Assembly (NCBI GenBank): GCA_964636755.1
Contig: CAZWSU010000048.1
Span: 1 to 62,533, forward strand
Reading direction: 5' to 3'
Source of the DNA: an uncultured Desulfurococcaceae archaeon
Lineage (GTDB): Archaea; Thermoproteota; Thermoprotei_A; Sulfolobales; NBVN01
Length of the DNA: 62,533 nt
The position numbers were made by a program, and so were the translations under genes. Positions 1,919-48,758 of the stretch are shown one piece after another; positions within the stretch are counted from its first letter, which is position 1; every line of letters begins with the position of its first letter. Below the pieces are notes generated by a model. It made no database searches, had not been told where the DNA came from, and worked only from the letters and a program-made list of their open reading frames with translations.

Positions 1919-1994
1919 TCTCCCACCCCATACCTCCTTAACTCATTTAATGTGAGTTAAACTTATATTTAGAAATAATTACTTGTTTTAAAAA

Positions 1995-3320
1995 TTATGG
2001 GTATGCTTGCTCAAGGAATATTATCGTGCCTCTCTCATAGAGACCAACGTCTTTAAATTGATAACCCTCAGGTCCTCCGGGAATTATAGCCCAAACACCG
2101 TAGTCTTGCTGTGCTTTATCGCCTGCGGAGTCGAATATAGTCCACCCGCTAGGACCGTAGTAAGTCTTAGCTACCTCTATCAAGGCGACTCTTATAGCTT
2201 CCCCGTCGTAGGTTCCTGCTCTAAGTATCGCCCAGCCAGCAAGCTTCACAGCGTCATACAGGTTCTCACTAAACACGCCTGGCTCAACACCGAATCTCTG
2301 TACCATCCTATTCTTGAAGTCTTCGTAGAGCGGATTAGCTATGAATAGAGGCCTAGTCCCGAATAATTTTACCTTAGATGCAAACTGCCCGATGGTAGGG
2401 GAGAGCAATTCTCCCGCGCCGTGCGGTCCCTCAGAAACAAACCACCTCACACTAGAAAGTATGTCTGACTCAGCAGCATGTGAAAGTATGTTAGCTCCGT
2501 CAGTATCGAAAGCTATTAACACTACAGCGTCAGCTCCCTCACTCTGAACCTTGCTTGCTAAAGTAGCTACCTCCGACGCATAGTCTGATAAGCCTGTCTG
2601 ATAAGGCAACTTAATCACAGATCCACCCATATCCTTGAAGTAGTTCTCGAAGAAGTCCGCAAACGCTTTACCATACTCGTCGTTTCTATGGAATACTACG
2701 ACCTTCCTAGCACCCTCTTGATACGCTAGGGCAGCCAACGCCTTAGCCTGACCAGCGTCAGAACCAACAGTCCTGAAAACGTAGTCGTTAGGTATAGCTA
2801 GAGTAGGTGCGGTGGAAGACGGTGATATAAGAACTATCTTATTGCTATCAACATAGCTCTTAACAACCTTAACTTGAGCGCTGGCAGCAGGTCCTATAAC
2901 AACCTTAATACCTTGTTGAGCAAAACTCTGCACGTTCTGCAACGCTTTCTCTTCGAGAGTACCGTCATCCAGAATCACGGCACGGAACTCAACGTTGAAG
3001 CCGTAAGCCTGAACCTCCTTATTCAAGTCTTCGATAGCTAGCTGAACTACCTTCTCCCATATCTTACCGATCGAAGATAGTTCTCCAGAGAGTGGTAGGG
3101 TGAAGCCTATATTATATATCTTCTTTTCAGGAGTTACGGTCACGGTGGTAGCTGCGCCACCGCCACTCATCACGGCTATACCGTAACCTGCTGCTAGACC
3201 TATTATTAGAGCCACTATTACTAAGGCAATAGCTCTCATATCGAACGCCATGTGAGTGGTACCCCAAATATTTTTCCCAGAAACCTTTTTAAGCTTTTCA
3301 TATATATCAAGAGTAAACAT
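1995..3320 (-). CDS. Liv-type ABC transporter substrate-binding protein (type-1 periplasmic binding fold), membrane-anchored
   Basis: The N-terminal TM helix (IALVIVALIIGLAAGYGIAV) is followed by a PBP1-like body. It is the first gene of the operon. The real start is probably the internal Met near 3251 or 3239 (MAFDMRAIAL...). Confidence 0.75.
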   Translation of the reverse strand: MFTLDIYEKLKKVSGKNIWGTTHMAFDMRAIALVIVALIIGLAAGYGIAVMSGGGAATTVTVTPEKKIYNIGFTLPLSGELSSIGKIWEKVVQLAIEDLNKEVQAYGFNVEFRAVILDDGTLEEKALQNVQSFAQQGIKVVIGPAASAQVKVVKSYVDSNKIVLISPSSTAPTLAIPNDYVFRTVGSDAGQAKALAALAYQEGARKVVVFHRNDEYGKAFADFFENYFKDMGGSVIKLPYQTGLSDYASEVATLASKVQSEGADAVVLIAFDTDGANILSHAAESDILSSVRWFVSEGPHGAGELLSPTIGQFASKVKLFGTRPLFIANPLYEDFKNRMVQRFGVEPGVFSENLYDAVKLAGWAILRAGTYDGEAIRVALIEVAKTYYGPSGWTIFDSAGDKAQQDYGVWAIIPGGPEGYQFKDVGLYERGTIIFLEQAYP

Positions 3321-6541: not shown

Positions 6542-7270
6542 TTATATTATTAAGTAAGCTTTCCGCAATCTCTCATCATTTATTAAGGCCGGGCTCTCCC
6601 CCTCCAATACTATCTTACCTGACTCCATCACGTAAGCCCTGTGCGAGATCTCTAAAGAGTTCTTGACGTGTTGCTCTACTAGGAGTAAAGTGACCTTCCA
6701 TTCCTCGTTTAACTTCTTAAATATTTGAAAGAGTTCTGAGACTATCTTAGGTGCTAAGCCGAGACTTGGCTCATCTAATAGCAGTATCTTAGGTCTCGAC
6801 ATCAAGGCCCTACCTATAGCGAGCATCTGCGACTCCCCTCCAGAGAGCGTGCCGGCTATCTGGTTCTTCCTTTCCTTAAGCTTAGGGAATATAGTGAACA
6901 CCATCTCAAGAGAATCATTAAGTTTTTGCCTAGCTTCCTCATGATAAGCACCTAAGTAGAGATTCTCAAGCACTGTTAGGGGTGCGAAGATCCCCCTACC
7001 CTCAGGCACTAACGCCAACCCCTTCTTGATCCTATTATATGTTGGGACCTCATTAATTCTTGATCCATCAAACATTATCTCACCCTTGAAGAGATTTGTG
7101 AGACCCACAATAGTCTTTAAAGTCGTTGTTTTACCGGCACCGTTAGGACCTACTAGAGCCACGATCTCCCCTTTATCTACCCTAAGACTCACACCGTGAA
7201 GAACCCTGAATACCCCGTAGCCTGCTTCCACGTTCATTAACTCAAGTAACGTGTTCCTCACATTCATCAC
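6542..7270 (-). CDS. livF: Liv-type ABC transporter ATP-binding protein, LivF-like
   Basis: Walker A GPNGAGKTT, signature LSGGESQMLAIGRAL, Walker B LLLDEPSLGL. It is the last gene of a 5-gene operon. Confidence 0.85.
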   Translation of the reverse strand: MMNVRNTLLELMNVEAGYGVFRVLHGVSLRVDKGEIVALVGPNGAGKTTTLKTIVGLTNLFKGEIMFDGSRINEVPTYNRIKKGLALVPEGRGIFAPLTVLENLYLGAYHEEARQKLNDSLEMVFTIFPKLKERKNQIAGTLSGGESQMLAIGRALMSRPKILLLDEPSLGLAPKIVSELFQIFKKLNEEWKVTLLLVEQHVKNSLEISHRAYVMESGKIVLEGESPALINDERLRKAYLII

Positions 7271-7271
7271 C

Positions 7272-8006
7272 TCAAATAGGTTTAGTGCCCAAATAAGCTT
7301 CCACTACTAGAGGGTCTCTCGCGATCTCAGCGGGCTTCCCCTGCGTTAACAATCTCCCTTCATGTAATACCACTATCCTGTCGCTAATGTTCATCACGAA
7401 CCTCATGACATGCTCTATCACGCCTAAAGTTATGCCCATCTCCCTATTAACCTTCTTAACTACGTCAGCTATAACGTCGACTTCGTGAGGTCTCAACCCA
7501 GCCACCACCTCATCTAGGAATAGTAGCTTGGGTTTAGTGGCTATAGCTCTAGCAAGATCCACTAACTTATGCTCTATCAAAGCGATGTTCTTACCGAGAG
7601 CCTCGAACTTACTTCTAGGGATGCCTACAAACTCAAGCACCTCCGCAGCTTCCTCCCTAGCTTTAAGAACATCCTTAGTTCTCAGCAAGGCCCCTGCAGT
7701 AACCGCTTCAATCACCGTCATGTTATAGAATGGCCTTATCTTCTGCCATGTCCTCGCAATACCTTTCAGCGCTATGAAGTGAGGTTGCTTACCGGTTATA
7801 TCCTCCCCTAAGAAGAGAACCTTCCCACCATCAGGCTTGTAAATACCAGTCACACAGTTTACGAGCGTTGTCTTGCCCGCCCCGTTAGGACCTATTATGC
7901 CCAGAATCTCGCCTTTAGTTATCCTCATACTCACGTTATTGAGTGCCGTAATACCCCCGAAACGCTTACTAAGGTTAACTACCTCAAGTAAGGTTGCGTC
8001 ACTCAT
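7272..8006 (-). CDS. livG: Liv-type ABC transporter ATP-binding protein, LivG-like
   Basis: Walker A GPNGAGKTT, LFLDEVVAGL, and a C-terminal LivG-type extension. I prefer ATG 8006-8004, which makes an ATGA overlap with the LivM stop. The ORF track extends to 8021. Confidence 0.85.
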   Translation of the reverse strand: MSDATLLEVVNLSKRFGGITALNNVSMRITKGEILGIIGPNGAGKTTLVNCVTGIYKPDGGKVLFLGEDITGKQPHFIALKGIARTWQKIRPFYNMTVIEAVTAGALLRTKDVLKAREEAAEVLEFVGIPRSKFEALGKNIALIEHKLVDLARAIATKPKLLFLDEVVAGLRPHEVDVIADVVKKVNREMGITLGVIEHVMRFVMNISDRIVVLHEGRLLTQGKPAEIARDPLVVEAYLGTKPI

Positions 8007-8986
8007 GAGGTACCACCCCATATCTTAGCCTTAACCCTCCTAACCAGAGTGTCCGTAAGTGTTGAGAGTCCTTCAGGCCTTAAGATACCCACGGTTATTA
8101 GTAACACACCGAATAAGAGTAGGTGGAGGCCTGGCAAAACACCACCTAAGTAACCCCTTAAATACTCCTCAACGATCTTAAGTATTATAGCAGCAGTAAA
8201 CACCCCGCTCACGGACCCTAACCCACCCACTATACCTATTATAGCTATGTAGGTTGATTGAGGACTGCTGAAGGTGTTGTAAGAGAACGTTCTCTGCGAG
8301 ACTATGTATATATACCCGATGAAGCCTAAGATAGACGCGTAAGTCATTAAAGCCAGTAACTTATACTTCCTTACATCTATACCTACGGCCTCGGCAGCCA
8401 CCTCATCCTCTCTTATGGCTTTCAGGTAGTACCCTATCTTACTCCTACTTATGTAGAGGTTTAACGAGATGACGAAAGCTAATATTATTAAACTAAAGTA
8501 GTAGAGATTTTCCCAAGTCCTAAACCTGAGGTAGTACCAGCCCTCAACGAGCTGTATGTAGTAATCAGAAGGTCCCAACACCATTATGGAGGTTTCATGC
8601 AGAATTACTACTAAAGCAGCAGTTGATAAAGCGTACCATACCCCTCTTATGCCAAAACGGAAGAGAGGATATCCTATAATGAAAGCTAAAGCCGCTGAGA
8701 TCCCGGCACCTAAGAACATGCCGGCCCACGGCGTTATATTATATTCCATCATGAGCATTGTCGCTAATATCCCTCCGAGACCTATGTAAGCGAATGAAGC
8801 TAAATCTAGTTGTCCTGCATAACCACCAATTATGTTCCACGCTAAAGCTATCGAAGCTACTATAACGGATTGAAGAGCTAACAATATGTAGTACTGATTA
8901 AAACCTACTAAGAACGGTATAGTCGCTCCAGCAACCACTACGACGAGAGCCGGTAAAATTATAGAGAATGAATCTCTCGACCTCAC
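8003..8986 (-). CDS. livM: Liv-type ABC transporter permease, LivM-like
   Basis: 327-aa polytopic protein with the LKAIREDEVAAEAVGIDV motif typical of LivM. Confidence 0.85.
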   Translation of the reverse strand: MRSRDSFSIILPALVVVVAGATIPFLVGFNQYYILLALQSVIVASIALAWNIIGGYAGQLDLASFAYIGLGGILATMLMMEYNITPWAGMFLGAGISAALAFIIGYPLFRFGIRGVWYALSTAALVVILHETSIMVLGPSDYYIQLVEGWYYLRFRTWENLYYFSLIILAFVISLNLYISRSKIGYYLKAIREDEVAAEAVGIDVRKYKLLALMTYASILGFIGYIYIVSQRTFSYNTFSSPQSTYIAIIGIVGGLGSVSGVFTAAIILKIVEEYLRGYLGGVLPGLHLLLFGVLLITVGILRPEGLSTLTDTLVRRVKAKIWGGTS

Positions 8987-8991
8987 TTAAA

Positions 8992-9864
8992 TCACCCCTT
9001 ACCGAAAAGCCCCTGCGGTCTAAACCATAACACTACTATGAAGACCACGTAAGGTATTGCTAGACTAACCGTCGGCGAGACTAAGGTCATCGTTAAAGAC
9101 TGTATAATCCCCACTATGATGCTTGACGCCAAAAGACCTGAAACCCCACCTAAACCTCCTAACGCTATTATAACCCAAGTCAGCAGACCGAAGGAAGAAC
9201 CTATGTAAGGATCGGCTTGCCCGAAAGTCATCCAGAGAGACGCTGCAAGACCTGTGAGAGCTATTCCAAGACCGAAAACCAATAAAAATATTTTACCTAC
9301 ATTAATACCCATTAAAGACGCTACCTCCCTATCATAGGCAGTCGCTCTAATAGCTAAGCCAACCCAAGTCTTGGTCAGGAGATAGTGAACCCCTAACACT
9401 ATAAGGAAACTAAGTAGCGCGGAAGTTAGTTTAGCTGCGTGAACGCTGACTAAACTCAAATCCACGTAAAAGTTCAAGTAAGAGATCTGAACAGCTCTAG
9501 GCTCCGCCCTAAACGTCATTAAAGCGAGGTTTTGTAGGACATACCCCACTCCAACAGTAACTGCTATCTGTATTAATGGTTCCTTACCCAAAACAGGTCT
9601 TATGATAATTGTGTAAATAGCCGCGCCAATCACAAAGAAGAGAGGTACTGTAATTACGGACATCAACGAGGGATCTGATCTCAGGTTATTAGCCAGTATC
9701 CATACTAGGTAGGAACCTAACATGATGAAGTCTCCGTGAGCAAAGTTTATTATCCCCATGACGCCGAATACTAGCGAGAGTCCTAGAGCCATGATGGAGT
9801 ATAGAAAGCCTAGAAAAATCCCGTCTAGGACGCTCTGAAGTAATAGGTTAAGACTAGGTAACAT
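8992..9864 (-). CDS. livH: Liv-type ABC transporter permease, LivH-like
   Basis: 290 aa with INFAHGDFIMLGSY and IRATAYDREVASLMGINV motifs. Confidence 0.85.
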   Translation of the reverse strand: MLPSLNLLLQSVLDGIFLGFLYSIMALGLSLVFGVMGIINFAHGDFIMLGSYLVWILANNLRSDPSLMSVITVPLFFVIGAAIYTIIIRPVLGKEPLIQIAVTVGVGYVLQNLALMTFRAEPRAVQISYLNFYVDLSLVSVHAAKLTSALLSFLIVLGVHYLLTKTWVGLAIRATAYDREVASLMGINVGKIFLLVFGLGIALTGLAASLWMTFGQADPYIGSSFGLLTWVIIALGGLGGVSGLLASSIIVGIIQSLTMTLVSPTVSLAIPYVVFIVVLWFRPQGLFGKG

Positions 9865-9922
9865 TCTAGCTTCACCTGCTCACGTTAAAAGAATTATTCT
9901 TAAGCTAAAAAACCTTTAAGGT

Positions 9923-11245
9923 TTAAGGTCTCGGGAAAACTGGGGTTACGCCCTCCTCAGCTTCAGGCCATACTACCTTAGGCTGACCTCCAATGACTTG
10001 AAGGATCGCAGTACCTCCGTAAAGGTTCTCACCGTTAGATGCTAGCTTTACTCTACCAGTTGGGTATAATTGAGCCGCTATACTGTTAGAGTCGTTTAGA
10101 TCTAGTGAGAGGAAGGCAGCTCTCAAATTATCTGGGTTTAGTGGGTCTTCAGGAAACATTTGCCCTGCTTTCTCCAGTCCCTCGTAAACGAACATTAGTG
10201 AGTAGAATATTATGCCTGCTGCTTCAGTAGGTAGCTTGCCATACCTTTGCTGGAATGCTTGAACGATACGTTTATTCCACTCAGTCTGGCGGGCCGGGTT
10301 GTAGCTGTACGTGTTAGTGAAGTATTCTACGGCTTCACCAGCTTCTCTTATGGAGTCTGGATCCGTATAACCACACCCACCAGCACCAGCTATGAACTTG
10401 ACCTTAATTCCTGAAGCTTGTAAGGCTTTAGCGAAGAGTATCCCGTCACTGAAGTAAGGAACACTAAATATCACGTCCGGGTTTAAGTCTCTAATCTTAG
10501 ATATTATCGGACCGAAATCTGTTATGGTGTACGCGTAGGTTATGGTCTCGTTAGGTATCACGCCATTAGCTATTAATTGCGATCTCACACCGTTAGCTAC
10601 GGTGGTACCGAATATAGAGTCTTCGTGAAGCACTACCACGGTACGTATCGTCACGTTAGTTTTCTGAGCCATCTCTAGGACGAAGTCTACGGCGGCCTTA
10701 CCGTGTGTGCTTGCTCTAGGAGCTAACCTAAAAACGTAGTTCCAGCCTTTCTCGGTTAGCCAGTCTACTAAGGCGTCCATAACTAAAGGTATCTTCTCCC
10801 TCTCAGTTACCTCAGCTACTGCAGCCGTAAGCCTACTTATGTAAGCTCCTAATATTACGTGAGGTCTGTAATTAGAGATGAGTCTCTCAGCAGCTAAAGC
10901 TGCTGAGTCAGGGCTTGTTCCCGCATCCTCAACGTATAACTCCAGCTTAGCACCACCTAACGAGCTAATACCGCCTAACTCGTTATTTATTATATCAACT
11001 AAGAGTCTGGCGGCGTCAACCGCTTCCTGACCAAAGACAGCGTAACGTCCTGTTAAAGGCTCTATAATACCTATCTTAACTTTCTCTATAACAGGCTTAG
11101 TAGTCGTGGGTGTTGTAGTTGTTGGTGTTGGTTGGCTAGTCAAGTAGATTATGACACCAGCTACAACCGCGATAATTATTACAAGACCTATTACAAGACT
11201 CATAGTTTTAGAAATAGCTCTTTTAAATGAACATTTTGACATCAT
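9923..11245 (-). CDS. Liv-type ABC transporter substrate-binding protein, TM-anchored with Thr/Pro linker
   Basis: An N-terminal TM helix is followed by a QPTPTTTTPTTTKP linker and a PBP1 fold. It is the first gene of the operon. Confidence 0.8.
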   Translation of the reverse strand: MMSKCSFKRAISKTMSLVIGLVIIIAVVAGVIIYLTSQPTPTTTTPTTTKPVIEKVKIGIIEPLTGRYAVFGQEAVDAARLLVDIINNELGGISSLGGAKLELYVEDAGTSPDSAALAAERLISNYRPHVILGAYISRLTAAVAEVTEREKIPLVMDALVDWLTEKGWNYVFRLAPRASTHGKAAVDFVLEMAQKTNVTIRTVVVLHEDSIFGTTVANGVRSQLIANGVIPNETITYAYTITDFGPIISKIRDLNPDVIFSVPYFSDGILFAKALQASGIKVKFIAGAGGCGYTDPDSIREAGEAVEYFTNTYSYNPARQTEWNKRIVQAFQQRYGKLPTEAAGIIFYSLMFVYEGLEKAGQMFPEDPLNPDNLRAAFLSLDLNDSNSIAAQLYPTGRVKLASNGENLYGGTAILQVIGGQPKVVWPEAEEGVTPVFPRP

Positions 11246-11448
11246 AGTACACCTTACAATTAAATTCTAACGCAAAGGTTTTTAAGCTTTTCCAATGCCT
11301 CGAAGTAGATGTAGCTTGTTCTCTCAATTAAGATGCTTTAATCGAACTCCCCATCTTTATTTGTTTTAGTGTTTCCGACGCTATGACTGTAAACACTTAT
11401 AAACGTGGTGCTAGGTTATGACTTTCGTTGGTGTGGTGGGAGATAAGC

Positions 11449-12273
11449 ATGCGTAGTGTGGGGGTCTTAGGTGCTGGCAGAATAGGTTCAGCTATTATTA
11501 GAGCTCTTAAGTCGTGCATACCTAACTTAGAGATTTACGCGAGTGGTAGGAGTGAAGAGACTTTAAGTAGAGCTTTAAGGTTTGGTGCTAAAGTGAGTAA
11601 GGATAACGCCTACGTAGTACGTAATTCTGATTTAGTAATCGTGAGTGTTAAGCCTCATCATTTCCTAGACGTCTATAATCAAATCCCGCTTGATTTCTGG
11701 TTAGGTAAGTTAGTGGTTTCCGTGATGGCTGGTGTTAGGTTAGAGACTTTAAGTAGGGTTCTGCATGGAGCTAAGGTCTTCAGAGCTATGCCGAATATTA
11801 ACACGCTAGTAGGTAAGTCAGCTACCGCTATAGCAACCAATAATAACGACTCAGAGGATCGCTCTCTCGTAGAGAGGGTTTTTCAGTGTTTTGGTAGCGT
11901 GTACTGGGTTCCTGAAGAATACCTAGATATTTGGACGAGTCTAGTCGGTAGTGGGCCTGCGTTCATGGCTGAAATAATAGATGGGCTGGTTCTGGGAGCT
12001 GTCTCGTCAGGGATGACCAGAGACATAGCTTACAAAGCAACGCTAGACATGATTGAAGGGACCGTGAAATTATTGAGGGAACTAGGTACGCACCCCATAG
12101 AAATCAGGGATGAGGTAACGACACCCTCAGGAACTACGATCCAGGGACTGAAGATCTTAGAGAGCAAGGGAATAAAAGCAGGCTTAATAGAAGTAGTGGA
12201 GACTTCGTTTAGAAGATCTAGGGAGATAGGGGTAGAGATAGATAATTCCATAAGAGCAAAACTAAATCGTTAA
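11449..12273 (+). CDS. proC: Pyrroline-5-carboxylate reductase
   Basis: Rossmann motif GVLGAGRIGSAI and C-terminal VTTPSGTTIQGL, the P5CR signature region. ATG 11449 is preceded by GGTGGGAG. The ORF track starts at TTG 11428. Confidence 0.85.
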   Translation: MRSVGVLGAGRIGSAIIRALKSCIPNLEIYASGRSEETLSRALRFGAKVSKDNAYVVRNSDLVIVSVKPHHFLDVYNQIPLDFWLGKLVVSVMAGVRLETLSRVLHGAKVFRAMPNINTLVGKSATAIATNNNDSEDRSLVERVFQCFGSVYWVPEEYLDIWTSLVGSGPAFMAEIIDGLVLGAVSSGMTRDIAYKATLDMIEGTVKLLRELGTHPIEIRDEVTTPSGTTIQGLKILESKGIKAGLIEVVETSFRRSREIGVEIDNSIRAKLNR

Positions 12274-12350
12274 CTCACCTCCGCTCTAAAGAGTTATACA
12301 CTCATCAAGAGTCAAGCACGGGAGTGTCAGCTACCACCAAGAATTTAGCG

Positions 12351-13013
12351 TCATGTTATAATACTCTTACTAATACTTCTAGCAAGTATTTTCAGAGACC
12401 CAAACAATTCACTAACCGAGCCTAGCTCAGCCTTAGAAACTATTTCGACAGCGTTGTGATCCTTATAAGCTGATAATTTTAGTATGGGCTTAGTCCTTGA
12501 GTCTATTATCTTCCTAATTAAATCTAGGTCTCTGGGTTCCTCATAAAAAACCTCATAATCACCCTTACTAGTCTTCACTGTGATTCTATTTAATTTTTCT
12601 GCTTGTCTCTCAAGATCCTTCAATAAGACTTTGAGTAGTCTAGACTCGTTCTTCCTAACCGCGTGGAGATTTCTTAAGATGCTCCGCCCAGTGAGTTCTA
12701 GCATTATAGTTACGCGGTCCTCATGCTTTAAAGCTTTAGCTATCGGGTAGTAGAAGAGGGAGTGCTTTGGTGCGGTGGTTAAGAGAACGTAGACGTTCCT
12801 CCCATCCTCAAGCTTATACCTAGCTCTGTACCCGACTAGATATCCTAGGAGGACGTACTCCTTATCACTAGGTCTTAACTCCCTCTCAAGTTCGTTAGTG
12901 AATTCCTTAATAAACCTGAGCATCTTCCTCCTAGCTCTGAAGTACCAGACTACTGAAGCGGATGACGCAACTACTAATATGGTGAACGCTATTACCTCTA
13001 TAGCCAAGGTCAC
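12351..13013 (-). CDS. Hypothetical N-terminally membrane-anchored protein (third gene of the ArsA-like module)
   Basis: 220 aa with a single N-terminal TM helix (LAIEVIAFTILVVASSASVVWYF) and then a charged soluble domain. Its GTG start overlaps the stop of the ArsA-like C-terminal fragment (GTGA). Confidence 0.6.
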   Translation of the reverse strand: MTLAIEVIAFTILVVASSASVVWYFRARRKMLRFIKEFTNELERELRPSDKEYVLLGYLVGYRARYKLEDGRNVYVLLTTAPKHSLFYYPIAKALKHEDRVTIMLELTGRSILRNLHAVRKNESRLLKVLLKDLERQAEKLNRITVKTSKGDYEVFYEEPRDLDLIRKIIDSRTKPILKLSAYKDHNAVEIVSKAELGSVSELFGSLKILARSISKSIIT

Positions 13014-13420
13014 GCACCTTTAATTATTGATACTACTTCCCTCAGCCTCAGAATATCCTCTATTCTCGACGGGGGATTACTTACGTAAGGTATTATAATG
13101 GATCTACCAGGCAAGCTCAGGAATTCCTCAATAATAGCTTTCTGTTCTTCGTAAGTTCCTAGCTTAACCGCGATATCTTCTGGGAGAACTTTATTCATCA
13201 CCAACAACTTAGGGGAAGTTAAGAGCTCCCCACTCAGGAATTTAAGGACTTCCTTCAACTCGTGCATGGGGAGGGGCTCAGGATTCGTTACGACTATGAA
13301 GGAGGTTCTTGATGGATTTACTAAGGCTTCCTTAACTCTGCTGTATTTTTCTCGCATCTCATATAATTTGATTAGAGCTGGGTCACTAATCTTGAGTTCC
13401 CTACCTAAAGTCTTAGCTAT
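13010..13420 (-). pseudogene. ArsA/Get3-family ATPase, C-terminal half only (separated from its N-terminal half by an inversion)
   Basis: Family similarity starts at ...IIAKTLGRELK and continues with RTSFIVVTNPEPLPMHELKEVLKFL and LLVMNKVLP. The upstream 66 codons of track ORF 13010..13618 are just antisense of cstA sequence. Confidence 0.8.
13414..13420. repeat. Left inversion junction core TAGCTAT
   Basis: This is the exact reverse complement of ATAGCTA at 15983-15989. Homology to CstA and to ArsA switches strand at this heptamer. Confidence 0.75.
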
Positions 13421-13421
13421 A

Positions 13422-14927
13422 ATGGCCAGCGTGAGGCACGGCGGGGTATCCATAATGAGTATAAGTGAGAATGTGATGGGCAGGAAAGCTAAGTACATAT
13501 TCCTTGCATACGTTTGGTTTGCTTTAGTGCTGGTTTTAGCAGCGTTCCTCAGCGTGGCTTCCTCAACTTTTGTGGGTACCCCTACCGCGGCAACCATATC
13601 CGTTCTATTCATGCCCATAGCCCTATTCTTCGGGTTGCTGGTTTACAGAACCGGGGTAAATGTTAGGACGGGAACAGTAATAGCGATAGCACTACTAATA
13701 TTAGCGTTCTTCTACTCCTTAAGAGTTCCCCTCTATCTGACATATGAGGCTTGGGTAGTGATTCTCTCACTCTACGCTATAATAGCGGCGGCTCTGCCTG
13801 TCTGGTACCTCCTGCAACCCAGAGACTACATAAACGCGTACCTGCTATGGGCATTCGTAGCCCTAGCTATTATAGGTGCGTTCCTAACATTTAATTACGG
13901 TCTCACAGGCCCAACATACGTGAGCTTCGTGGGTCCAGGTACCATAATAGGAGCGTTGCCAGGTACCGCGACAGGTGGGGCACCCATAGCTTACTTCTGG
14001 CCAACGGTTCCATTAGTCATCGCGTGCGGTGCTCTCTCCGGTTTCCACTCAGTAGTTGGTTCTGGAACCACTTCTAAGCAATTGTCTAGCGAGCTAGATG
14101 CTTTGTTGGTTGGTTATGGAGGCATGTTAACTGAGGGAGCCGTTTCCTCGCTCGCTGTGATCGTACCTATAGCACTTGCCTGGAACTTTGCGGCGTTAGC
14201 TTCCGCTACAGGTCTTCCAGTATCTGAGGCACTTCTAAAGGTGGGCGTAAACGCCACGGCAACCCCGTTCATCGTAGGACTTGGAGCAGTAGATAGGTTT
14301 ACTGTTGGTTACGGTTTGGAGCAGGCAGTAGCTTGGTCGAGAGTTTTAGGTCCCGGAGTATTTGAGAGCACGTTCATAACCTTCAAGACATTCGCTGCTT
14401 GGGCTCTCACAGGATTCGTGTTAACTACTCTAGACACCTCTAATAGACTAGCCAGATTTGCTTGGAGAGAACTTTTTGACTGGCTTAAGCCTAAGAGCGA
14501 GTCAGCTTATAAAGTGATAACGAATAGGTGGGTTGCTTCAGTAATTCCGGTAATTCTGGGTGCTCTCATGGCTTATCCTCAGATCTACATACCAGAGATT
14601 AAGAAACCAGTCTACGCGTACTCAGTTATTTGGCCAGCATTCGCGGGTACTAACCAGTTACTAGCTGCTTTAGCTTTGCTCACAGCAGCTTTATGGGCTT
14701 ACGCGATACAGAAAGTTAGGGGAGGTACTTCATTGCTGATAATGATTCCAGCACTCTTCCTGTGGGTAACTGTTACTGTAGCCCTCATATGGTGGCTCTA
14801 TGCAGTAGTCCCCGGATTACCGCTACTCTATCAGGTCGGTGCAGGAACTATAGTAGCTATATCGATAGTGCTTGACTTCCTACTAATAGGACTCTTCATC
14901 TCAGGACTCAAGAGAGCTAGATTATAG
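13422..14927 (+). pseudogene. cstA: Carbon starvation protein CstA, C-terminal ~500 codons only (N-terminus lies on the opposite strand at 15982..16317)
   Basis: MASVRHGGVSIMS..., LPVWYLLQPRDY, ACGALSGFHSVVGSGTTSKQ and GYGGMLTEG match the E. coli CstA core from about residue 120 onward. The first 52 codons of track ORF 13266..14927 are antisense of the arsA fragment. Confidence 0.85.
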
Positions 14928-15143
14928 AGATCAAGATCAATATTTTTAGTAATTTTTAAAAAATCTATAATAAACGCATCGTATTGAAGGTGGGGACAGG
15001 CTCAGAAGGCACTCTAAGTTTCCTAGACTCTCAAAACTCAAAGCATTTACTCAAGGTTTCCTTTGACTATTTCCGCATCTCCATGATTTATTTCTCAATT
15101 TATTAGGTGAGTCGCTTAAGTAGGTTTATGGGGTGGTGGGAGG

Positions 15144-15437
15144 GTGTTTAAGACTTTTAAGAAGATTTTGAAGGAATTCATGGACTTCATTAAGGGAATT
15201 AATCAAGCGATAATTGAGGATAGTGTTAGTGCTCTCGAGCTGGAGCACAACGAACTTGAAGCAGCTTTCTTAACTATGGTTCTAGGCCCCCTAGTAGGGG
15301 TTACCACGCTATCCCCTATCCTCAGTCTGGAATTACTTGAAGCACTTAAGAATGAGATCAAGATTCTTGAGAGCAGAGCTGTGAGAGGGGAAGACGTGTT
15401 AGGAGACTTAATGGCTTCCTTAGGTGGTGAGTGGTGA
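15144..15437 (+). CDS. Hypothetical small helical protein (first gene of the ArsA-like module)
   Basis: 97 aa, predicted alpha-helical, with a GGTGGTGGGAGG purine-rich tract 5' of its GTG start. Its stop overlaps the GTG start of the ArsA-like N-terminal fragment. Confidence 0.55.
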   Translation: MFKTFKKILKEFMDFIKGINQAIIEDSVSALELEHNELEAAFLTMVLGPLVGVTTLSPILSLELLEALKNEIKILESRAVRGEDVLGDLMASLGGEW

Positions 15438-15994
15438 TTAATTTAATTGACTTACTGAAACCTATTGAGGGAACTCCTCATGTAGTCATGGTTTTGGGTA
15501 AGGGGGGTGTGGGGAAGACCTCAACATCCATACTGATATCCAGTGAGTTAAGTAGGTTAGGTAAGACACTCCTAGTAAGTTTTGATCCAGCCAAGCATAT
15601 ACTCAAATACCTAAACGTAAGTAGGCCAGCAGAAATACTTGAAGTAGGCGATGATTTCTTCGTAAGCCAATTAGATATTGAGGTTTCTGTTAAGGAGTTA
15701 ACGTCTAGATACTCAAGCTTGATCAGCGATTTATTTCCGTCACTCTCAGTTCTTAATTTAGAGGACATTACTAAAGCTCTTAAGTATGCTCCGGGGGTTG
15801 AAGAGGAGGTATTCCTTAACTGGCTAGGCAGTGCTTACGAGAATAAGAACTTTAAATTCGTAGTTATAGACACTCCGCCCACAGGCATCTCCTTAAGGAC
15901 CTTGACGTTGCCGAAACTCTACCTCCTATGGCTTGAGAAATTAATTAACATAAGAGAAAGGATTGTGTCACTCAGGTATGTGATAGCTAGGTAG
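15431..15994 (+). pseudogene. ArsA/Get3-family ATPase, N-terminal half only
   Basis: Deviant Walker A GKGGVGKTS and a DTPPTG switch motif. The frame terminates two codons after ...SLRYVIA, exactly at the inversion junction. Confidence 0.8.
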
Positions 15995-16317
15995 TCGTGG
16001 ACAGCACCTATGAACACGTTACCGAAGAGAACCCATATGAGGGGTAAGCCCCATCCCCACGCCATCGCTGTTGCAGGACCTATTATGGGACCCGCCCCAG
16101 CTATTGATGCGAAATGATGTCCGTAAAGCACGTACTTGTTAGCTGGAACGTAATCAATCCCGTCAAATTTCTCGTAAGCGGGAGTCACCCTATCCGGGCT
16201 TGCTCCCGCAACCTTTCTCTCAAGTATCCTCTTCCCGTAGAAGATGTAAGCTAAACCATACACGACGAGAACTATTACCAAAATGAATATTACCGGCATG
16301 ACATCCATGACAAACAC
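15982..16317 (-). pseudogene. cstA: Carbon starvation protein CstA, N-terminal 112 codons only
   Basis: DYVPANKYVLYGHHFASIAGAGPIIGP and GNVFIGAVHDYLAI match the CstA N-terminus. Residues after ...LAI (down to the stop at 15919) are antisense of arsA. The GTG start lies 2 nt after the upstream gene stop. Confidence 0.85.
15983..15989. repeat. Right inversion junction core ATAGCTA
   Basis: Reverse complement of TAGCTAT at 13414-13420. Both interrupted reading frames lose family similarity here. Confidence 0.75.
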
Positions 16318-16319
16318 CC

Positions 16320-16565
16320 CTAACTCAGCTTCCTCCCTGTCTTAGCCTCAACTAATTTCTTAATGTTTGTAGGCACTTCACCGAGCCACAGCGCGGGGCC
16401 TAAAATGATTAACAGGAAGCCCATGGAAATTAGCATGGCATCAGTGGTTACGACACCCTTATCTCCCATCCTCCCAGTCGTTAAACCGACATAGAGAATC
16501 TCGTAAGCGAATATCAAGAGGCTCAGGACTGTTATTATTAGACCCAAAGCCTCTTTAGCCTTCAC
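16320..16565 (-). CDS. Small 2-TM membrane protein immediately upstream of cstA
   Basis: 81 aa with two hydrophobic helices. The GTG start has GAGGTG 9 nt upstream (plus-strand CACCTC 16575-16580). Its stop is 2 nt from the cstA start. Confidence 0.5.
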   Translation of the reverse strand: MKAKEALGLIITVLSLLIFAYEILYVGLTTGRMGDKGVVTTDAMLISMGFLLIILGPALWLGEVPTNIKKLVEAKTGRKLS

Positions 16566-16601
16566 TTAAAGAGACACCTCACATATTATATATTATGAAA
16601 C

Positions 16602-16609
16602 ATTTAAAA
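16602..16609 (-). promoter_or_regulatory. Candidate TATA box (TTTTAAAT on the minus strand) for the 16565->12351 gene string
   Basis: AT-rich box about 40 nt upstream of the GTG at 16565, in a 256-nt AT-rich intergenic region. Confidence 0.3.
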
Positions 16610-16821
16610 GCTTTACCATTGTTTGCTAACATATATTTTTAGGAGACCCCTGAGGTATAATAATTTCTGATTTGAAAGCAATAAATGTGAGTTCTAGTTT
16701 TATCACAGCGGAGAGGCGATGATCTTAACCTTGAGAGGAAAATTATTTCACGATATGTTTATGGCGATGTAGTAGCGTGTATTTGGAAAGATAAAAAGCT
16801 TAGTTGTTTGACTTTCAATAA

Positions 16822-17091
16822 TTAACGTATTAGACCCATATTAATTAAGACTCTCTTAGTCAAGCCGACGAGCCACTTACTTTCATGGGTAGACTTTCCT
16901 GTAATCATCAACTCACTAACGATCTTCCTCTGTTCCTCGTCAAGCATCATCAGACCTAGCATAAAAGCTTTCTCTTCTGTCGTTAGCGGAGCTCCTAATT
17001 CTCCTGGTAGTTTAATTAAGGCCTTCCCTAAATCGCTTAAGTCCCAAACATCATCCTCTATTCTCGTCACTAACGGATTCCACGTAAGCAA
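16822..17091 (-). CDS. Winged-helix-like DNA-binding protein, possibly start-defective or frameshifted (frame open up to 17274)
   Basis: The track ORF starts at TTG 17091. The same frame stays open for 61 more codons (..LLDVRCRDIARILVEGPKTRKEIGAKLREKYPKL..., wHTH-like) with no ATG/GTG/TTG. The only nearby ATG (17273-17271) is one nucleotide out of frame. Confidence 0.45.
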   Translation of the reverse strand: MLTWNPLVTRIEDDVWDLSDLGKALIKLPGELGAPLTTEEKAFMLGLMMLDEEQRKIVSELMITGKSTHESKWLVGLTKRVLINMGLIR

Positions 17092-17351
17092 TACGTACCT
17101 GACCCAAGCACCGCGCGCTCTAAGTTTAGGATATTTCTCACGTAACTTAGCACCTATCTCTTTCCGTGTTTTAGGACCTTCTACAAGTATTCTAGCTATA
17201 TCCCTACACCTAACATCTAGTAGAGGCGTAAGGATCCCCGTAGCATTCTCTACTACAGAGTTATTAAACCCATCTCAACACGTTATTAACTCACAGAAAT
17301 TTATTAATCCCTTCACAAGGTATTCATGTATGAATCCTTGAAATCTGTGAG

Positions 17352-17735
17352 GTGTGTTTAGTGAGCGTGCCTGCATTCATTCTAAGGAGACTTTACGTTA
17401 AAGGAAGTCTCAGGAACGTTGAGAACGGTTTTGAGTTCTCACTAAGGAACGTTCTTGCAGACGCTGAGCTAATTAAGCCGCTGGAAATATACGTTGACGA
17501 CACACAAATACCCTTAGAAAATGTTACGTTAATTGCTGGAACAACTAGCATCTCAAACAAAGACATAGCAGAATCGAATCCCGTTAAATTCTCGCTAAAC
17601 ATGACGGCGACTATAAGAGTAGACGGAGCGAGGCTTGAGCCAGGGGAACATAAAATAACTCTCGTTGTTACGGTTAAGGGCTACGGCACGATAAAATTCG
17701 ACATAAGAGACGCCCTAAGTTCTCCCACGTCTTAG
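17352..17735 (+). CDS. Hypothetical small protein heading the glycoside-utilisation operon
   Basis: 127 aa with a beta-rich look (ITLVVTVKGYGTIKFDI). There are several GTG start options (17352, 17361, 17367). It is on the same strand as the GH1 gene, 68 nt upstream of it. Confidence 0.45.
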   Translation: MCLVSVPAFILRRLYVKGSLRNVENGFEFSLRNVLADAELIKPLEIYVDDTQIPLENVTLIAGTTSISNKDIAESNPVKFSLNMTATIRVDGARLEPGEHKITLVVTVKGYGTIKFDIRDALSSPTS

Positions 17736-17802
17736 AATATGTTTTCACTAAATAGCATCTTGTTTTTTCTTGTAAAGTTTTTATCTTTTTGATTGATATA
17801 TA

Positions 17803-19269
17803 TTGAGGTCGTTAACTATGATGAAGTTTCCGCCGAACTTCTTACTTGGTTTTAGTGAATCAGGTTTTCAGTTTGAGATGGGTTTCCCTGATCAGACAGA
17901 CCCCAATACTGACTGGTGGATATGGGTTCACGACCCTGATAATATCGCTTCAGGTATCGTAAGCGGTCATTTACCTGAGGAAGGTCCTGGCTACCTAACA
18001 CTTTACAAGATAGATCACGAAATAGCCGATAGATTAGGTGCTAACACGTTAAGACTAGGTGTAGAGTGGAGCAGAATCTTCCCTAAATCTACTAAGCAAG
18101 TACCGGTTACTATAGAAAGAGATGAGGAGGGAGTCATAACTCACGTTGAGATGAACGAGAATACCTTAAACTTGCTTCGAGAATTAGCTAATAAGAAAGC
18201 GATAGAGACCTATAGGTACTTGTTTAAAGACTGGGTTAGTAAGGGAAAGAAATTGATACTCAATTTAAACCACTTCACTCTCCCGTCCTGGCTTCATAAC
18301 CCGGTAGAGCTAAGGCTTCGGGGAGTCGCTTCAGCACCCTCAGGTTGGTTAAGCGAGGATTCTATTATAGAGTTCACGAAATATGCTTACCTAGTAGCAC
18401 ACGAATTTTCCGATCTAGTAGATATGTGGAACACGCTTAACGAACCTAACGTAGTAGCTACTGCAGGCTACTTAAACGTCAAGTCCGGCTTTCCCCCAGG
18501 ACTCGCAAGCATGGAGTATACCATGATCGCGTTGAGAAACCAGATGATCGCTCACGCAAGAGCTTACGATACGTTAAAAGAGGTCACTAAGAAACCTGTT
18601 GGCATAATACATAACTTCATGTGTTTCGAGCCTTTGAATCCTGAGAATCCAGACGATGTTTCCGCAGCGTTTAACGCGTCACTATTGTATAATCACTTAT
18701 TCATAGACTCTGTCACTCAGGGGTCATCCATGTTGGTGTCATCAGATTCGCTGAGGAACAGGCTTGACTGGATAGGCGTGAACTACTACACACGAATGGT
18801 TGTTACGTCAGATAGGAAGCTAATGACTGGGTGGAGGTATATTCCGGGTTACGGATTTCTCTGTACGCCTGACGAGCTGAGTAAGGCTGGTAAGCCCTGT
18901 AGCGACTTCGGTTGGGAAACCTACCCGGAGGGCCTGGAGAAGGTGTTGCTCGAAGTATATGAGAGGCATAAACTCCCGATAATTGTGACCGAGAACGGCA
19001 TAGCGGACTCCGCAGATAAATACAGGTCTTCCTACATCTTAACACATCTCCTAAGTGTTTTGAGAGCTTTAGAGAAAGGAATTGATATTAGAGGCTACCT
19101 GCACTGGGCTTTAATAGACAATTATGAGTGGGCCATGGGCTTCAACATGAGATTCGGCTTAGTTAAGGTAGACTTCTCGACTAAGAAGAGGTATCTAAGA
19201 CCTAGTGCGTTATTCTTCAAGGAAATAGCGACGAGGCACGAAATACCTGAAGACCTACTATTCGTTTAG
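17803..19269 (+). CDS. GH1 beta-glycosidase (LacS-like)
   Basis: N-terminus FPPNFLLGFSESGFQFEMG, acid/base motif TLNEPN and nucleophile motif VTENGIAD. The likely start is ATG 17818. Confidence 0.9.
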   Translation: MRSLTMMKFPPNFLLGFSESGFQFEMGFPDQTDPNTDWWIWVHDPDNIASGIVSGHLPEEGPGYLTLYKIDHEIADRLGANTLRLGVEWSRIFPKSTKQVPVTIERDEEGVITHVEMNENTLNLLRELANKKAIETYRYLFKDWVSKGKKLILNLNHFTLPSWLHNPVELRLRGVASAPSGWLSEDSIIEFTKYAYLVAHEFSDLVDMWNTLNEPNVVATAGYLNVKSGFPPGLASMEYTMIALRNQMIAHARAYDTLKEVTKKPVGIIHNFMCFEPLNPENPDDVSAAFNASLLYNHLFIDSVTQGSSMLVSSDSLRNRLDWIGVNYYTRMVVTSDRKLMTGWRYIPGYGFLCTPDELSKAGKPCSDFGWETYPEGLEKVLLEVYERHKLPIIVTENGIADSADKYRSSYILTHLLSVLRALEKGIDIRGYLHWALIDNYEWAMGFNMRFGLVKVDFSTKKRYLRPSALFFKEIATRHEIPEDLLFV

Positions 19270-19295
19270 AATCTCAAGGACCGAGTTGATTAAGC

Positions 19296-21443
19296 TTGAT
19301 TAAACTAATTAGTAATAAAAACGTTGATATCTGGATTGAATCAATAAAGATTCTGGGAGTTGGCGAAGAACGCGAGATCAAGCATCGCCCTACACTTATT
19401 CAGGGAGTTAATAAGTCCACGCTCTACGTTTTCGAGGATGACGGTTATAACCTAAAATTAAGAATTGACGAGAACGAAGGAATTTCAGTGCTTGGCGCGG
19501 AAATACCCACGTCCTTACAGAAACTGGGTATTGAGCCCTTAGAGATCAAGACCTCAATAAAACCATCACCAGAGAAAACACTCGTCTTAACGAATCTAAA
19601 CTTCCTAGGGAAAACGTATGAGACCGCTATGAGGTATTACAATATGAGGGTACTAGGTGTTGAGGAAGGGGTTCCTCCACCAGAGGATATATCCATCCCT
19701 TCCCAGCACGCGCCCTTAGACCTGATCCAACATTATGGCTCAGTACCTGCGTGGTTATACCCTATTCACGTTGACGACATCAACAAAATACCCTCATTTA
19801 CTATCATGATCTTATCGAGAGTTAGAGAATATTACTTCGCGGCGTTAGGGCTCGCGGATAACTCAGTAACGTACTTTCATCCAGGCATGTGTATTAAGTC
19901 GTACACAGGATTTGAGGAAGACACGTTAAGGTTTACCTGGCTCGCTGCTCTAGGTCTCGGGGACAGCCCGTACGAGCTAATTGAAAGATTATTTGAGCAA
20001 GCTAGTTTAAGACTTAACTTTAAACTACGTGTTCATAAAGAGAAGCCTAAAAACTTTAACGGTCTTGGTTGGTGTTCTTGGAACGCTCTAGGATTGCGTG
20101 ACTTGACTTCAAAGAACGTACTCAGCGTAGTTAGAGACTTAATAGTAAGAGGGGTTAAGCTCTCGTACGTCATAATAGATGATGGCTGGCAAGCAGAGAA
20201 GGAAGAAGAGCTCCGAATACCTGGATACGCGCCCATCAAGCTTAGAGTACTTGAAGATCTAGAACCAAACAGTGAAAAATTTGAGGGAGGGTTCCCCACT
20301 CTAGTAAGGGAACTAAAGAATCTAGGAATACGTCATGTAGGTTTATGGCATACTTTAAATCTCCACTGGGGAGGTTTCTCTGAGAGAGTAGCTAACGAAC
20401 TTAGTGTGACGGCGATTAAATCGTTAATTCAGCCAGGATGTGCGTTATCTCCTTCATTTAGTGAGTACTTCAGAGCGTATAAGAACCTCTACAGCAAACT
20501 TAATAAAGAGGGGTTTTCTTTTGTTAAAGTAGATAATCAGTGGATTATTGAGCCACTTTACTTGGGTGTGGAGAATGCAGGGTCTGCAGCTAAGAAAGCT
20601 CAAAACGCGTTACAGGAAGCTTCCGTTGAGTCAGGACTGGAAATACTTAACTGTATGTCGATGACCCCCTCCTGCCTCTTCAATTATTGGAGAAGCAACG
20701 TAGTGAGAGCTTCAATAGATTACGTTCCTTTCTGGCGTTCCGGAGCTAAATTACATAATTATTTCTGCCTCTACAATAGTTTGCTAGTGTCTCAGATAGC
20801 TTACCCCGACTATGACATGTTCATAACCTATGACGAAGCCTCACTCCTCCACCTAATTTTCAGGGTCTTGAGTGGAGGACCTATATACATCACGGACAGG
20901 GAAGTAGACAAGACTAACTTTGACTTACTGAGGAAAATTCTCTTACCAGATGGTGATGTTGTGAAACCGGATGAGCCGGCCCTACCCACCCTAGACATAT
21001 TATTCAAGAACCCCTACATGGAGCCCGTACTACTCAAGGCTTTTACAAGGATAGGAAAACATTTCGTAATAGGAGTTGGTAACGTATACCGTCATGGCGG
21101 CGTAGTCAAGGACACCGTTTCACTGTCTCATACCAAGTATTACGTACCCGGCGGTAATTACCTAGTGTATAGAGTGTTAACTAACGAGAAATTCCTCGTA
21201 AGCGGTCCGGATGAGAAGGTAGAGATAGAATTAGATGAGTTAGAAGCTGATGTCTTAGTGTTTACTAGGATAGAGGACGGGTTAGGCGTGGCAGGTCTTA
21301 GGGATTATCTTCTACCACCATACCCCATCAGGATAAAGGATGAAACCAGCGTTGAAACAAGAGCTCCAGGTACGCTTATTTATTATAAAAATGGTGATAT
21401 TATTGAGTTAAGTCTGAGAGAAGGAGTTCTACACAAGCTGTGA
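19296..21443 (+). CDS. GH36-type alpha-galactosidase (raffinose-synthase/Sip1-like, GalS-like)
   Basis: YVIIDDGWQ and FVKVDNQW motifs and a 715-aa length. It is adjacent to GH1 and to galactose-metabolism genes. Confidence 0.75.
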   Translation: MIKLISNKNVDIWIESIKILGVGEEREIKHRPTLIQGVNKSTLYVFEDDGYNLKLRIDENEGISVLGAEIPTSLQKLGIEPLEIKTSIKPSPEKTLVLTNLNFLGKTYETAMRYYNMRVLGVEEGVPPPEDISIPSQHAPLDLIQHYGSVPAWLYPIHVDDINKIPSFTIMILSRVREYYFAALGLADNSVTYFHPGMCIKSYTGFEEDTLRFTWLAALGLGDSPYELIERLFEQASLRLNFKLRVHKEKPKNFNGLGWCSWNALGLRDLTSKNVLSVVRDLIVRGVKLSYVIIDDGWQAEKEEELRIPGYAPIKLRVLEDLEPNSEKFEGGFPTLVRELKNLGIRHVGLWHTLNLHWGGFSERVANELSVTAIKSLIQPGCALSPSFSEYFRAYKNLYSKLNKEGFSFVKVDNQWIIEPLYLGVENAGSAAKKAQNALQEASVESGLEILNCMSMTPSCLFNYWRSNVVRASIDYVPFWRSGAKLHNYFCLYNSLLVSQIAYPDYDMFITYDEASLLHLIFRVLSGGPIYITDREVDKTNFDLLRKILLPDGDVVKPDEPALPTLDILFKNPYMEPVLLKAFTRIGKHFVIGVGNVYRHGGVVKDTVSLSHTKYYVPGGNYLVYRVLTNEKFLVSGPDEKVEIELDELEADVLVFTRIEDGLGVAGLRDYLLPPYPIRIKDETSVETRAPGTLIYYKNGDIIELSLREGVLHKL

Positions 21444-21455
21444 GGTGCGTGAAGT

Positions 21456-22799
21456 ATGGCCGTCAAAAAGTTTATGGTTCTATTCTTTATCACCATGCTG
21501 ATGATGCTTTACGCGGATCAGAATCTAATAGCTCCGATGTTAAGAACTTTAAGAAATGATGGTATGATCATAGGCGGGGAGGAAGACTGGTACTATTATG
21601 CAGGGTTGCTAGGAACTATCCCGGTACTGTCTGGAATAATCACAACGTTTGTGTGGGGATATCTCGCAGATAAATTAAGTAGGAGATTACTGTTTGCGGT
21701 AGCAGTGCTTGTTGGCGAGATACCGTGTTTTCTGACCGCTTTCGCAAACGACTACTACCAGATGTTAGTCCTTCGGGCGTTGACGGGTGTTGGGATAAAT
21801 GGAGCGGCACCAGTAGCTAGAGCGTTGATCTCCGATCTTTATCCCCCCGAGGAGAGGGGGAAGGGCTACGCGTTATATAACTTCGGTTCTGGTTTCGGAG
21901 TGCTTCTCGGGATGCTATTAGCCGGGATAGTCCTAAGCACGGGTCTGAGTTGGAGGGTTCCGTTCATGCTAGCAGCAGCGCCTAATTTCATCCTAGTCCC
22001 GCTATTTTTGTTGACTGTCAAGGAGGTGAAGCTAGGGTACGCTGAGCCGGAGATAAGGAAGTTCTACGAGATGGGTTACGAGTACAGGTTTAAGATAAAT
22101 CTAAGAGAATTCTTCATGGCACTAGTCACTACCCCGACACTGATATTTATGTACCTTCAAGGGGTTCCTGGGACTTTCCCGTGGGGCGCGATACCTTATT
22201 GGGCACCCACGTTCTTCCAGGAAAAGTGGGGATTATCTGAAGCTACAGCAACTTTCATAGTATTCGTAGCTGGCATGGGGATGATGATAGGGTACTTCGT
22301 AGGCGGGCTCCTCTCAGACAAGCTTATAAATAAAGGCCTGTCTAAGGGTAGACTGATAGTGCCTTTCACCGGTATTCTCATAGGTACCTTCACGGTAATA
22401 ATGCTTCTCTCATATCCCTATCCTTACGGTGAGGAGACACTTACCGCGCTAATCCCGGTAATCATAATTAGTTTGCTTGGAATGATCTTCGTGACTTTCG
22501 CAGCCCCGAACGTCCCCGCAGTCCTCAGCGAGGTATCGTTACCGGAACACAGAGGAACTATTTTCGGGATGTTCAACATAACGGATAATATAGGCTCTGC
22601 TTTCGGTCCAGTAATAGCTAGTGCTTTCATGATATTCTTCCAATCAAACGGTGTTCCAGAACCAGACAACATGTTACTTGGTCTGATAGCAGTAAGTCTT
22701 TTATGGATTCCTTGCGCGTTATTATGGCTTCCTGCATTCAGAACATACGAAAAAGACAAGAAGAAGTTAAGGAAGACTCTAGCTGAAAGAAGTGTGTAG
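21456..22799 (+). CDS. MFS transporter (probable sugar/glycoside importer)
   Basis: 447 aa, about 12 TM, with an MFS loop motif region GYLADKLSRR. It lies 12 nt downstream of the alpha-galactosidase gene. Confidence 0.75.
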   Translation: MAVKKFMVLFFITMLMMLYADQNLIAPMLRTLRNDGMIIGGEEDWYYYAGLLGTIPVLSGIITTFVWGYLADKLSRRLLFAVAVLVGEIPCFLTAFANDYYQMLVLRALTGVGINGAAPVARALISDLYPPEERGKGYALYNFGSGFGVLLGMLLAGIVLSTGLSWRVPFMLAAAPNFILVPLFLLTVKEVKLGYAEPEIRKFYEMGYEYRFKINLREFFMALVTTPTLIFMYLQGVPGTFPWGAIPYWAPTFFQEKWGLSEATATFIVFVAGMGMMIGYFVGGLLSDKLINKGLSKGRLIVPFTGILIGTFTVIMLLSYPYPYGEETLTALIPVIIISLLGMIFVTFAAPNVPAVLSEVSLPEHRGTIFGMFNITDNIGSAFGPVIASAFMIFFQSNGVPEPDNMLLGLIAVSLLWIPCALLWLPAFRTYEKDKKKLRKTLAERSV

Positions 22800-46158: not shown

Positions 46159-46162
46159 CTTA

Positions 46163-47885: not shown

Positions 47886-47887
47886 GT

Positions 47888-48748: not shown

Positions 48749-48758
48749 CTTAACCAGC

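Follow-up and report, generated by a model that had tools for sequence, protein, structure and literature searches.

A very recent 2.56-kb inversion, probably by short homology, divides cstA and an arsA/get3-like gene in a Zestosphaera-like hot-spring archaeon

The DNA analysed here (referred to as the window) is a complete contig of 62,533 bp, CAZWSU010000048.1, from an NCBI metagenome-assembled genome (MAG) of an uncultured Desulfurococcaceae archaeon, and between positions 13421 and 15982 it holds a segment that is inverted relative to the ancestral arrangement. The inversion divides two genes, cstA and an arsA/get3-like ATPase gene, each into two pieces on opposite strands. The inversion, of 2.56 kb, is real and very recent and was likely produced by short homology in a single sub-lineage; the host is an uncultivated, Zestosphaera-like archaeon of hot springs. 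The original prediction, made from the letters of the window, was that illegitimate recombination at a 7-bp inverted repeat had produced a genuine inversion, and it is supported by strains that carry the uninverted order, by exact breakpoints and by the recovery of the junctions in other assemblies.

The inverted segment comprises 2562 bp, or 2576 bp when both repeats are included. The left repeat, TAGCTAT (13414..13420, palindromic core TAGCTA at 13414-13419), falls within codons 107-109 of cstA, and the right repeat, ATAGCTA (15983..15989, core TAGCTA at 15984-15989), is its reverse complement and falls within codons 184-186 of arsA. When the window was compared with uninverted contigs using blastn, 13421..15982 aligned in reverse to L001, L002, L004, L005, L011 and L045 while both flanks were colinear. 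The alignments consist of three blocks that overlap by exactly 7 bp at each boundary, the left overlap being TAGCTAT itself, with no base gained or lost. In L001 the first block (L001 1-10326) corresponds to window 26308-15983, the second (10320-12897) to window 13414-15989 in the opposite orientation and the third (12891-21833) to window 13420-4478, all three being 99.8% identical to the window. The junctions share just the two 7-mers and their flanks do not align, as had been proposed. Junctional microhomology of at least 7 bp at random breakpoints would be expected with a chance of ~5e-4 (our own approximation, (n+1)/4^n), and homology so far above this expectation argues that the exchange was homology-guided.

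The division of both genes was seen at the expected places. The N-terminal part of CstA is encoded by a minus-strand open reading frame (ORF) of 132 amino acids (aa), 16317..15919, which matches positions 3-105 of the Pfam CstA profile (PF02554), and the remainder lies on the plus strand up to 14927 and matches positions 90-557, the two pieces together covering the 560 positions of the profile once and contiguously. The N-terminal half of the ArsA/Get3-like protein is found in a plus-strand ORF of 187 aa (15431..15994) and the C-terminal half on the minus strand down to 13010, with matches to positions 3-166 and 182-267 of the 305 in ArsA_ATPase (PF02374), each above the cut-off of 24.3 bits. 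Reversal of 13421..15982 in silico restored both frames and gave a single CstA ORF, 613 aa long from the first GTG and 610 aa from the ATG used by relatives, and a single ArsA-like ORF of 320/319 aa. The restored CstA is identical, residue for residue, to P0122, an intact natural protein in other public assemblies, and the restored ArsA to P0127, whose gene is present on 8 contigs of at least 10 kb. Within these proteins both cstA pieces, and likewise both arsA pieces, adjoin exactly, and the possibility that either pair does not derive from one family member thereby falls away. After the reversal five genes, p81, cstA, DUF7990, arsA and p218, stand on the minus strand; the seven genes proposed earlier had been counted from ORF pieces.

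To establish which arrangement is ancestral, conspecific strains and more distant relatives were compared, the orientation class of every locus being confirmed with exact junction strings of 36-37 nt. In ten other assemblies the genes stand in the uninverted order p81-cstA-DUF7990-arsA-p218. At the DNA level nine of these match the window at 99.1-99.9% identity (ERZ27245611, ERZ27289261, ERZ650669, SRR16936465, SRR34097024, SRR5468518, SRR7787884, SRR16936464 and Ga0065719) and one, MAG GCA_053489815.1, is 93-98% identical. The three-block blastn pattern described for L001 was also found in ERZ27289261, ERZ650669, SRR16936465, SRR34097024 and GCA_053489815.1, and in part in SRR5468518, SRR7787884, SRR16936464 and Ga0065719. 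A protein search with the restored CstA returned full-length proteins of 610 aa from other public assemblies that are 99-100% identical to it. The matches ranking next carry the names Zestosphaera or Desulfurococcaceae, which places the organism outside the Thermoproteales, where it had been sought in the original prediction. Among the GTDB species representatives with a CstA relative (56-88% identity), p81-cstA-DUF7990-arsA lies on one strand with both genes intact at 19 of 22 loci, belonging to Zestosphaera, other Desulfurococcaceae, Acidilobaceae and Thermodiscus, and the inverted arrangement was seen at none of the 22. An exact-pattern scan of the GTDB species representatives for the segment end gave no match, and an exact DNA pattern scan of JGI data gave one contig, which is uninverted. 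The colinear, intact order in the ten assemblies and in the 19 species shows that the arrangement of the window is derived, and a split that is native to the relatives is not what the synteny reveals.

The inverted arrangement was also recovered outside the window, in contigs reached through the truncated 186-aa ArsA product (L007 and L009), the neighbouring p218 gene (two more contigs) and the 147-aa C-terminal ArsA product (the fifth). The right inverted junction is contained in L007 (Logan SRR4027954, window 14362-16028, 100% identical) and L009 (ENA ERZ27289263, assembled with MEGAHIT, window 14363-16091), and the left one in L014 (Logan SRR4027954, window 13443-11832), L013 (ENA ERZ27289263, window 13478-11840) and L041 (JGI 3300005298, Ga0071330_1068729, window 14073-12508). 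Both junctions were thus assembled in SRR4027954 and in ERZ27289263 and the left one additionally in JGI 3300005298, which is a corn-stover enrichment made in situ at Great Boiling Spring in Nevada (bioRxiv 10.1101/2022.12.01.518715). Four assemblers are represented, and the inverted contigs differ in their backgrounds of single-nucleotide polymorphisms (SNPs), both from the window and from one another. Together with two balanced, reciprocal junctions and a repeat too short to matter in assembly graphs with k of at least 31, this indicates that the inversion is present in the DNA, and an artefact is largely removed as an option.

The event is very young, since no private substitution is present in the broken genes of the window, which differs from the closest uninverted contigs (L001, L004, L005 and L011) by only 1-3 mismatches in 2.58 kb. 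One SNP haplotype within the segment is common to all inverted contigs, as expected for a single origin. It had been left open whether the inversion is fixed or heterogeneous; judged from the ten assemblies with the uninverted order, it is polymorphic within the species and not fixed, most sampled populations being intact. SNPs private to the inverted contigs are mostly nonsynonymous while those that they share with uninverted strains are all synonymous. Relaxed selection on the broken genes was considered as an explanation and set aside, as the private SNPs lie on low-coverage contigs, two of them at a contig end, and errors explain them equally well. Among the uninverted contigs L018 (Logan SRR16936464_5907, 1945 bp) stands out: compared with all other strains it has many single-base indels, and its ArsA and p218 products (P0129 and P0137) are frameshifted, which probably reflects an error-prone contig of low coverage and not biology.

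When analysing the repeat itself no signs of a dedicated site appeared. The window contains 62 copies of TAGCTA, 22 of TAGCTAT and 17 of ATAGCTA, and two further TAGCTAT copies lie within the inverted segment. The hexamer count compares with ~15 expected from length alone (~4x) and with 33-64 under Markov models; its abundance matches the 4th-order Markov expectation and therefore reflects local oligonucleotide or codon usage. The length and positions given for the 7-bp inverted repeat in the original prediction hold, but in essence it is a common palindromic hexamer plus one base. No extended or imperfect inverted repeat was found at the junctions; with the 7-mers aligned 9 of the 11 central bases match, after which the match decays at once. 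In the 4.3 kb between 12300 and 16600 there are 188 inverted-repeat pairs with an exact seed of at least 7 nt, and the pair at the junctions ranks below the 25 longest of them. One or other of the 7-mers is lost in relatives through synonymous or conservative changes, and both co-occur only in this species and its relative at 93-98% identity. About 12 other TAGCTAT/ATAGCTA pairs are present in the 22 kb open to comparison, none of them inverted in any assembly. Pfam scans of all ORFs in the window gave no recombinase, integrase or transposase domain, in agreement with the claim that neither a recombinase nor an insertion sequence is present there. A repeat that is abundant, unextended and unconserved indicates that the event was stochastic and not programmed.

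The starting state was a cluster on one strand, p81-cstA-DUF7990-arsA/get3-like-p218. Most likely, one reciprocal exchange between the inverted TAGCTAT copies in cstA and in arsA then flipped everything between the repeats without gain or loss of a base, truncating CstA and the ATPase. The route may have been illegitimate or short-patch recombination between the 7-mers, or an equivalent double template switch during replication.

Several observations weigh against a single short-homology exchange. From sequence, recombination, template switching and a cut followed by religation cannot be told apart. The four inverted assemblies may partly derive from a shared DNA sample, and the Logan and MEGAHIT contigs, whose far ends nearly coincide, seem to share reads. 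The short inverted contigs that cross a junction, all except L041, end 23-102 nt past it, and the reason could be mixed orientations that make the graph branch, and not low coverage. The end of L014 (13443) falls exactly on the last junction-specific 31-mer, as would be predicted for a branch in the graph, but the ends of L007 (16028), L013 (13478) and L009 (16091) do not fit that prediction, and far ends that coincide at 14362/14363 speak for low coverage. Left of the breakpoint, over 1.6 kb (window 11832-13413), three SNP haplotypes are each found in both orientations, a four-gamete violation: the inverted window pairs with the uninverted L004/L011, the inverted L013/L014 (12966T, 13130G in L014 only) with the uninverted L001/L006, and the inverted L041 (13106G, 13202T, 13208T) with the uninverted L005/L018. 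For one origin to hold, there must have been two or more subsequent recombinations no farther than ~200-450 bp from the breakpoint, or the consensus contigs must be mosaics. The flank pattern could thus reflect recombination near the breakpoint, mosaic consensus contigs of mixed strains or recurrent inversion.

Read as recurrence, these haplotypes would make the segment an inverton-like phase-variation switch or a mutational hotspot, with cstA and arsA toggled and both orientations kept within populations. Such flipping would also account for the fragmentary contigs from inverted-state samples, most of which end just beyond the junctions, and for the lack of private mutations in the broken genes of the window, and archaeal invertons have barely been explored, with 12 found in 42 genomes (bioRxiv 10.1101/2023.03.11.532203). 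It is nevertheless an unlikely account, given a repeat of 7 bp that has 39 copies in the window when its complement is included, shows no extended or imperfect symmetry, is 1 of 188 similar pairs locally and is not conserved among relatives. The equal pairs nearby have stayed uninverted, the 62.5-kb window yielded no recombinase, and the inverted state gives truncated products only, with no alternative coding output. Long contigs of ten assemblies cross the uninverted junctions unbroken, the segment haplotype is uniform among the inverted contigs, and the haplotype pattern is explained by homologous exchange within the colinear flank or by mosaic consensus assembly. Recombination close to a breakpoint is plausible in hot-spring archaea. 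Very unlikely is a further route, in which a palindrome-cutting nuclease, for instance of restriction type, made double-strand breaks at both TAGCTA palindromes and the 2.6-kb piece was religated in reverse. Both breakpoints do lie in an identical 6-bp palindrome, religation of the self-complementary ends left by such breaks would yield the observed base-perfect junctions, and by our estimate (two chances of 1/4) the seventh base would match by accident in ~44% of cases. However, TAGCTA is over-represented and not avoided, unlike an expected host restriction target, two internal sites (13864 and 14854) were left unused and no nuclease or methylase gene was found in the window; the sequence cannot separate this route from short-homology recombination. 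It is extremely improbable that the inversion is an assembly, scaffolding or library artefact, that is, a chimera in an organism whose arrangement is really intact. The window is a MAG contig, and the three other inverted assemblies are of low coverage, may partly share one DNA sample and have contig ends that nearly coincide (14362/14363 and 11832/11840). Against this, both reciprocal junctions were reproduced by Logan (k=31) and by MEGAHIT (k141 contigs), the left one in the JGI contig has flanks of 653 and 906 nt, and the inverted contigs carry SNP differences from the window and mutually. Amplification chimeras give single, non-reciprocal junctions and not a balanced, base-perfect inversion. 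A 7-bp repeat is unable to mislead a de Bruijn graph at k of at least 31, in line with the argument, made when the inversion was proposed, that such a repeat is too short to produce an assembly error on its own; the chimeric clone or scaffold that was then still allowed for loses most of its ground now that the inverted junctions recur in other assemblies made by other assemblers.

The preferred explanation, a single inversion by short homology, has counterparts elsewhere. Inversion between short inverted repeats is a known class in bacteria (Schofield et al. 1992, as cited in PMC11040001), and template switching, microhomology-mediated break-induced replication and non-homologous end joining are listed as further inversion routes (PMC11040001). 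Like the short-repeat class, the present case has a kilobase-scale segment, a reciprocal, base-perfect exchange between short inverted repeats and no mobile element or dedicated recombinase site; an exact reverse complement lies between colinear flanks and one repeat copy is kept at each junction. It differs in that the host is a hyperthermophilic archaeon and in being a natural polymorphism in metagenomes, not a laboratory-selected event. The repeats described by Schofield and co-workers are reportedly longer than the 7 bp found here. The inversion resembles the replication- and end-joining-based routes in the microhomology at its two junctions, and the same product could come from a double switch during replication, but those routes often leave small deletions, duplications or insertions whereas here both junctions are exact and reciprocal. 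Invertons as identified by PhaseFinder/PhaVa, among them intragenic and partial-intergenic ones (bioRxiv 10.1101/2023.03.11.532203), are alike in having breakpoints in coding sequence, changed ORFs, premature stops and polymorphism among close genomes; the example mutated in that study has an 11-position repeat. Inverton repeats are specific, usually at least 10 bp and unique to the element, whereas here the repeat is 7 bp, is neither specific nor extended and occurs in 22+17 copies. Neither the arrangement nor the repeats are conserved in relatives, no invertase or tyrosine-/serine-recombinase gene was found in the 62.5-kb window and there is no functional alternative product.

The consequences for the individual genes can be read from the pieces. 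The cstA 5' fragment (15919..16308, minus strand) consists of codons 1-109 (16308..15982), the junction lying at residue 109 of 610, followed by a 20-aa out-of-family tail and a stop. The 3' fragment (13421..14927, plus strand) holds codons 110-610. The arsA/get3-like 5' fragment (15434..15994, plus strand) has 185 native codons, including the P-loop GKGGVGKT and the motif DTPPTG, followed by Arg and a stop, and the 3' fragment (13010..13414, minus strand) holds codons 186-319, so that the break in the ATPase follows residue 185 of 319 and separates the nucleotide-binding half from the C-terminal half. The inverted segment also contains a 216-bp spacer and, downstream of it, the DUF7990 gene (15144..15437, plus strand, 97 aa, PF25952), which is intact. 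What now precedes the arsA 3' part and p218 is antisense cstA sequence, and both have probably been cut off from their promoter or upstream transcription. By its coding content the inversion is a double knock-out of cstA and arsA. Regarding family membership, the restored CstA scores 192 bits, far below the NCBIfam cut-off of 1188 for the E. coli pyruvate/H+ symporter equivalog, and the restored ArsA-like protein 132.1 bits against a TIGR00345 cut-off of 135. The arsA product has a single ATPase domain and is therefore not a true two-domain arsenical-pump ArsA.

The warning that antisense frames make both 3' halves look intact proved justified. In the ORF 13266..14927 (plus strand, 553 aa) the first 49 aa are antisense read-through of arsA, and in the ORF 13618..13010 (minus strand, 202 aa) the first 68 aa are antisense read-through of cstA. 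Neither of these ORFs is on record as a database protein, because gene callers chose other starts; the truncated products called as proteins on this contig are P0125 (490 aa), P0128 (186 aa) and P0131 (147 aa).

At the ends of the cluster lie p81 (16320..16565, minus strand), the first gene, coding for what is by eye a small hydrophobic protein, and p218 (12351..13007, minus strand), the last one, whose start abuts the arsA stop and whose product of 218 aa has by eye a hydrophobic N-terminus and no family match. The module of p81, cstA, DUF7990 (97 aa) and a single-domain ArsA/Get3-like ATPase, corresponding to window 12351-16565 with p218, is conserved in 19 of the 22 species-level relatives (loci L019-L040). 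In near relatives p218 is located downstream on the same strand and in distant ones upstream and divergent. The contig of GCA_053489815.1 (L045, JBRCGZ010000005.1), compared with window 4469-25142, shows 97-98% identity in the A flank and in the segment but 92.8% on the B side, and this uneven divergence suggests a mosaic history through recombination among strains.

Elsewhere the window contains three separate clusters for LIV-type (branched-chain amino acid) ATP-binding cassette transporters, at 1-3320, 6542-11245 and 45451-50129, together with peptidases (M42, M32 and S9) and sugar-use genes (GH1, raffinose synthase-like, GH57 and amylase). As predicted functions, the transporter, peptidase and sugar-use genes would fit a peptide- and polysaccharide-fermenting lifestyle.

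The inversion is an ordinary mutation of a known type and no new molecular system. For annotation it sets a trap, with four truncated ORFs, two of which are lengthened by antisense read-through, and fragments that circulate as ordinary proteins. Genes that appear split in a MAG can be real structural variants and not assembly errors. If it were true that the segment flips repeatedly, it would represent recombinase-independent or minimal-site phase variation in Archaea. As a short-homology event it offers a clean, base-resolved, natural inversion at 7-bp homology in an uncultivated hyperthermophilic archaeon, still polymorphic and with the ancestral allele present in sister populations.

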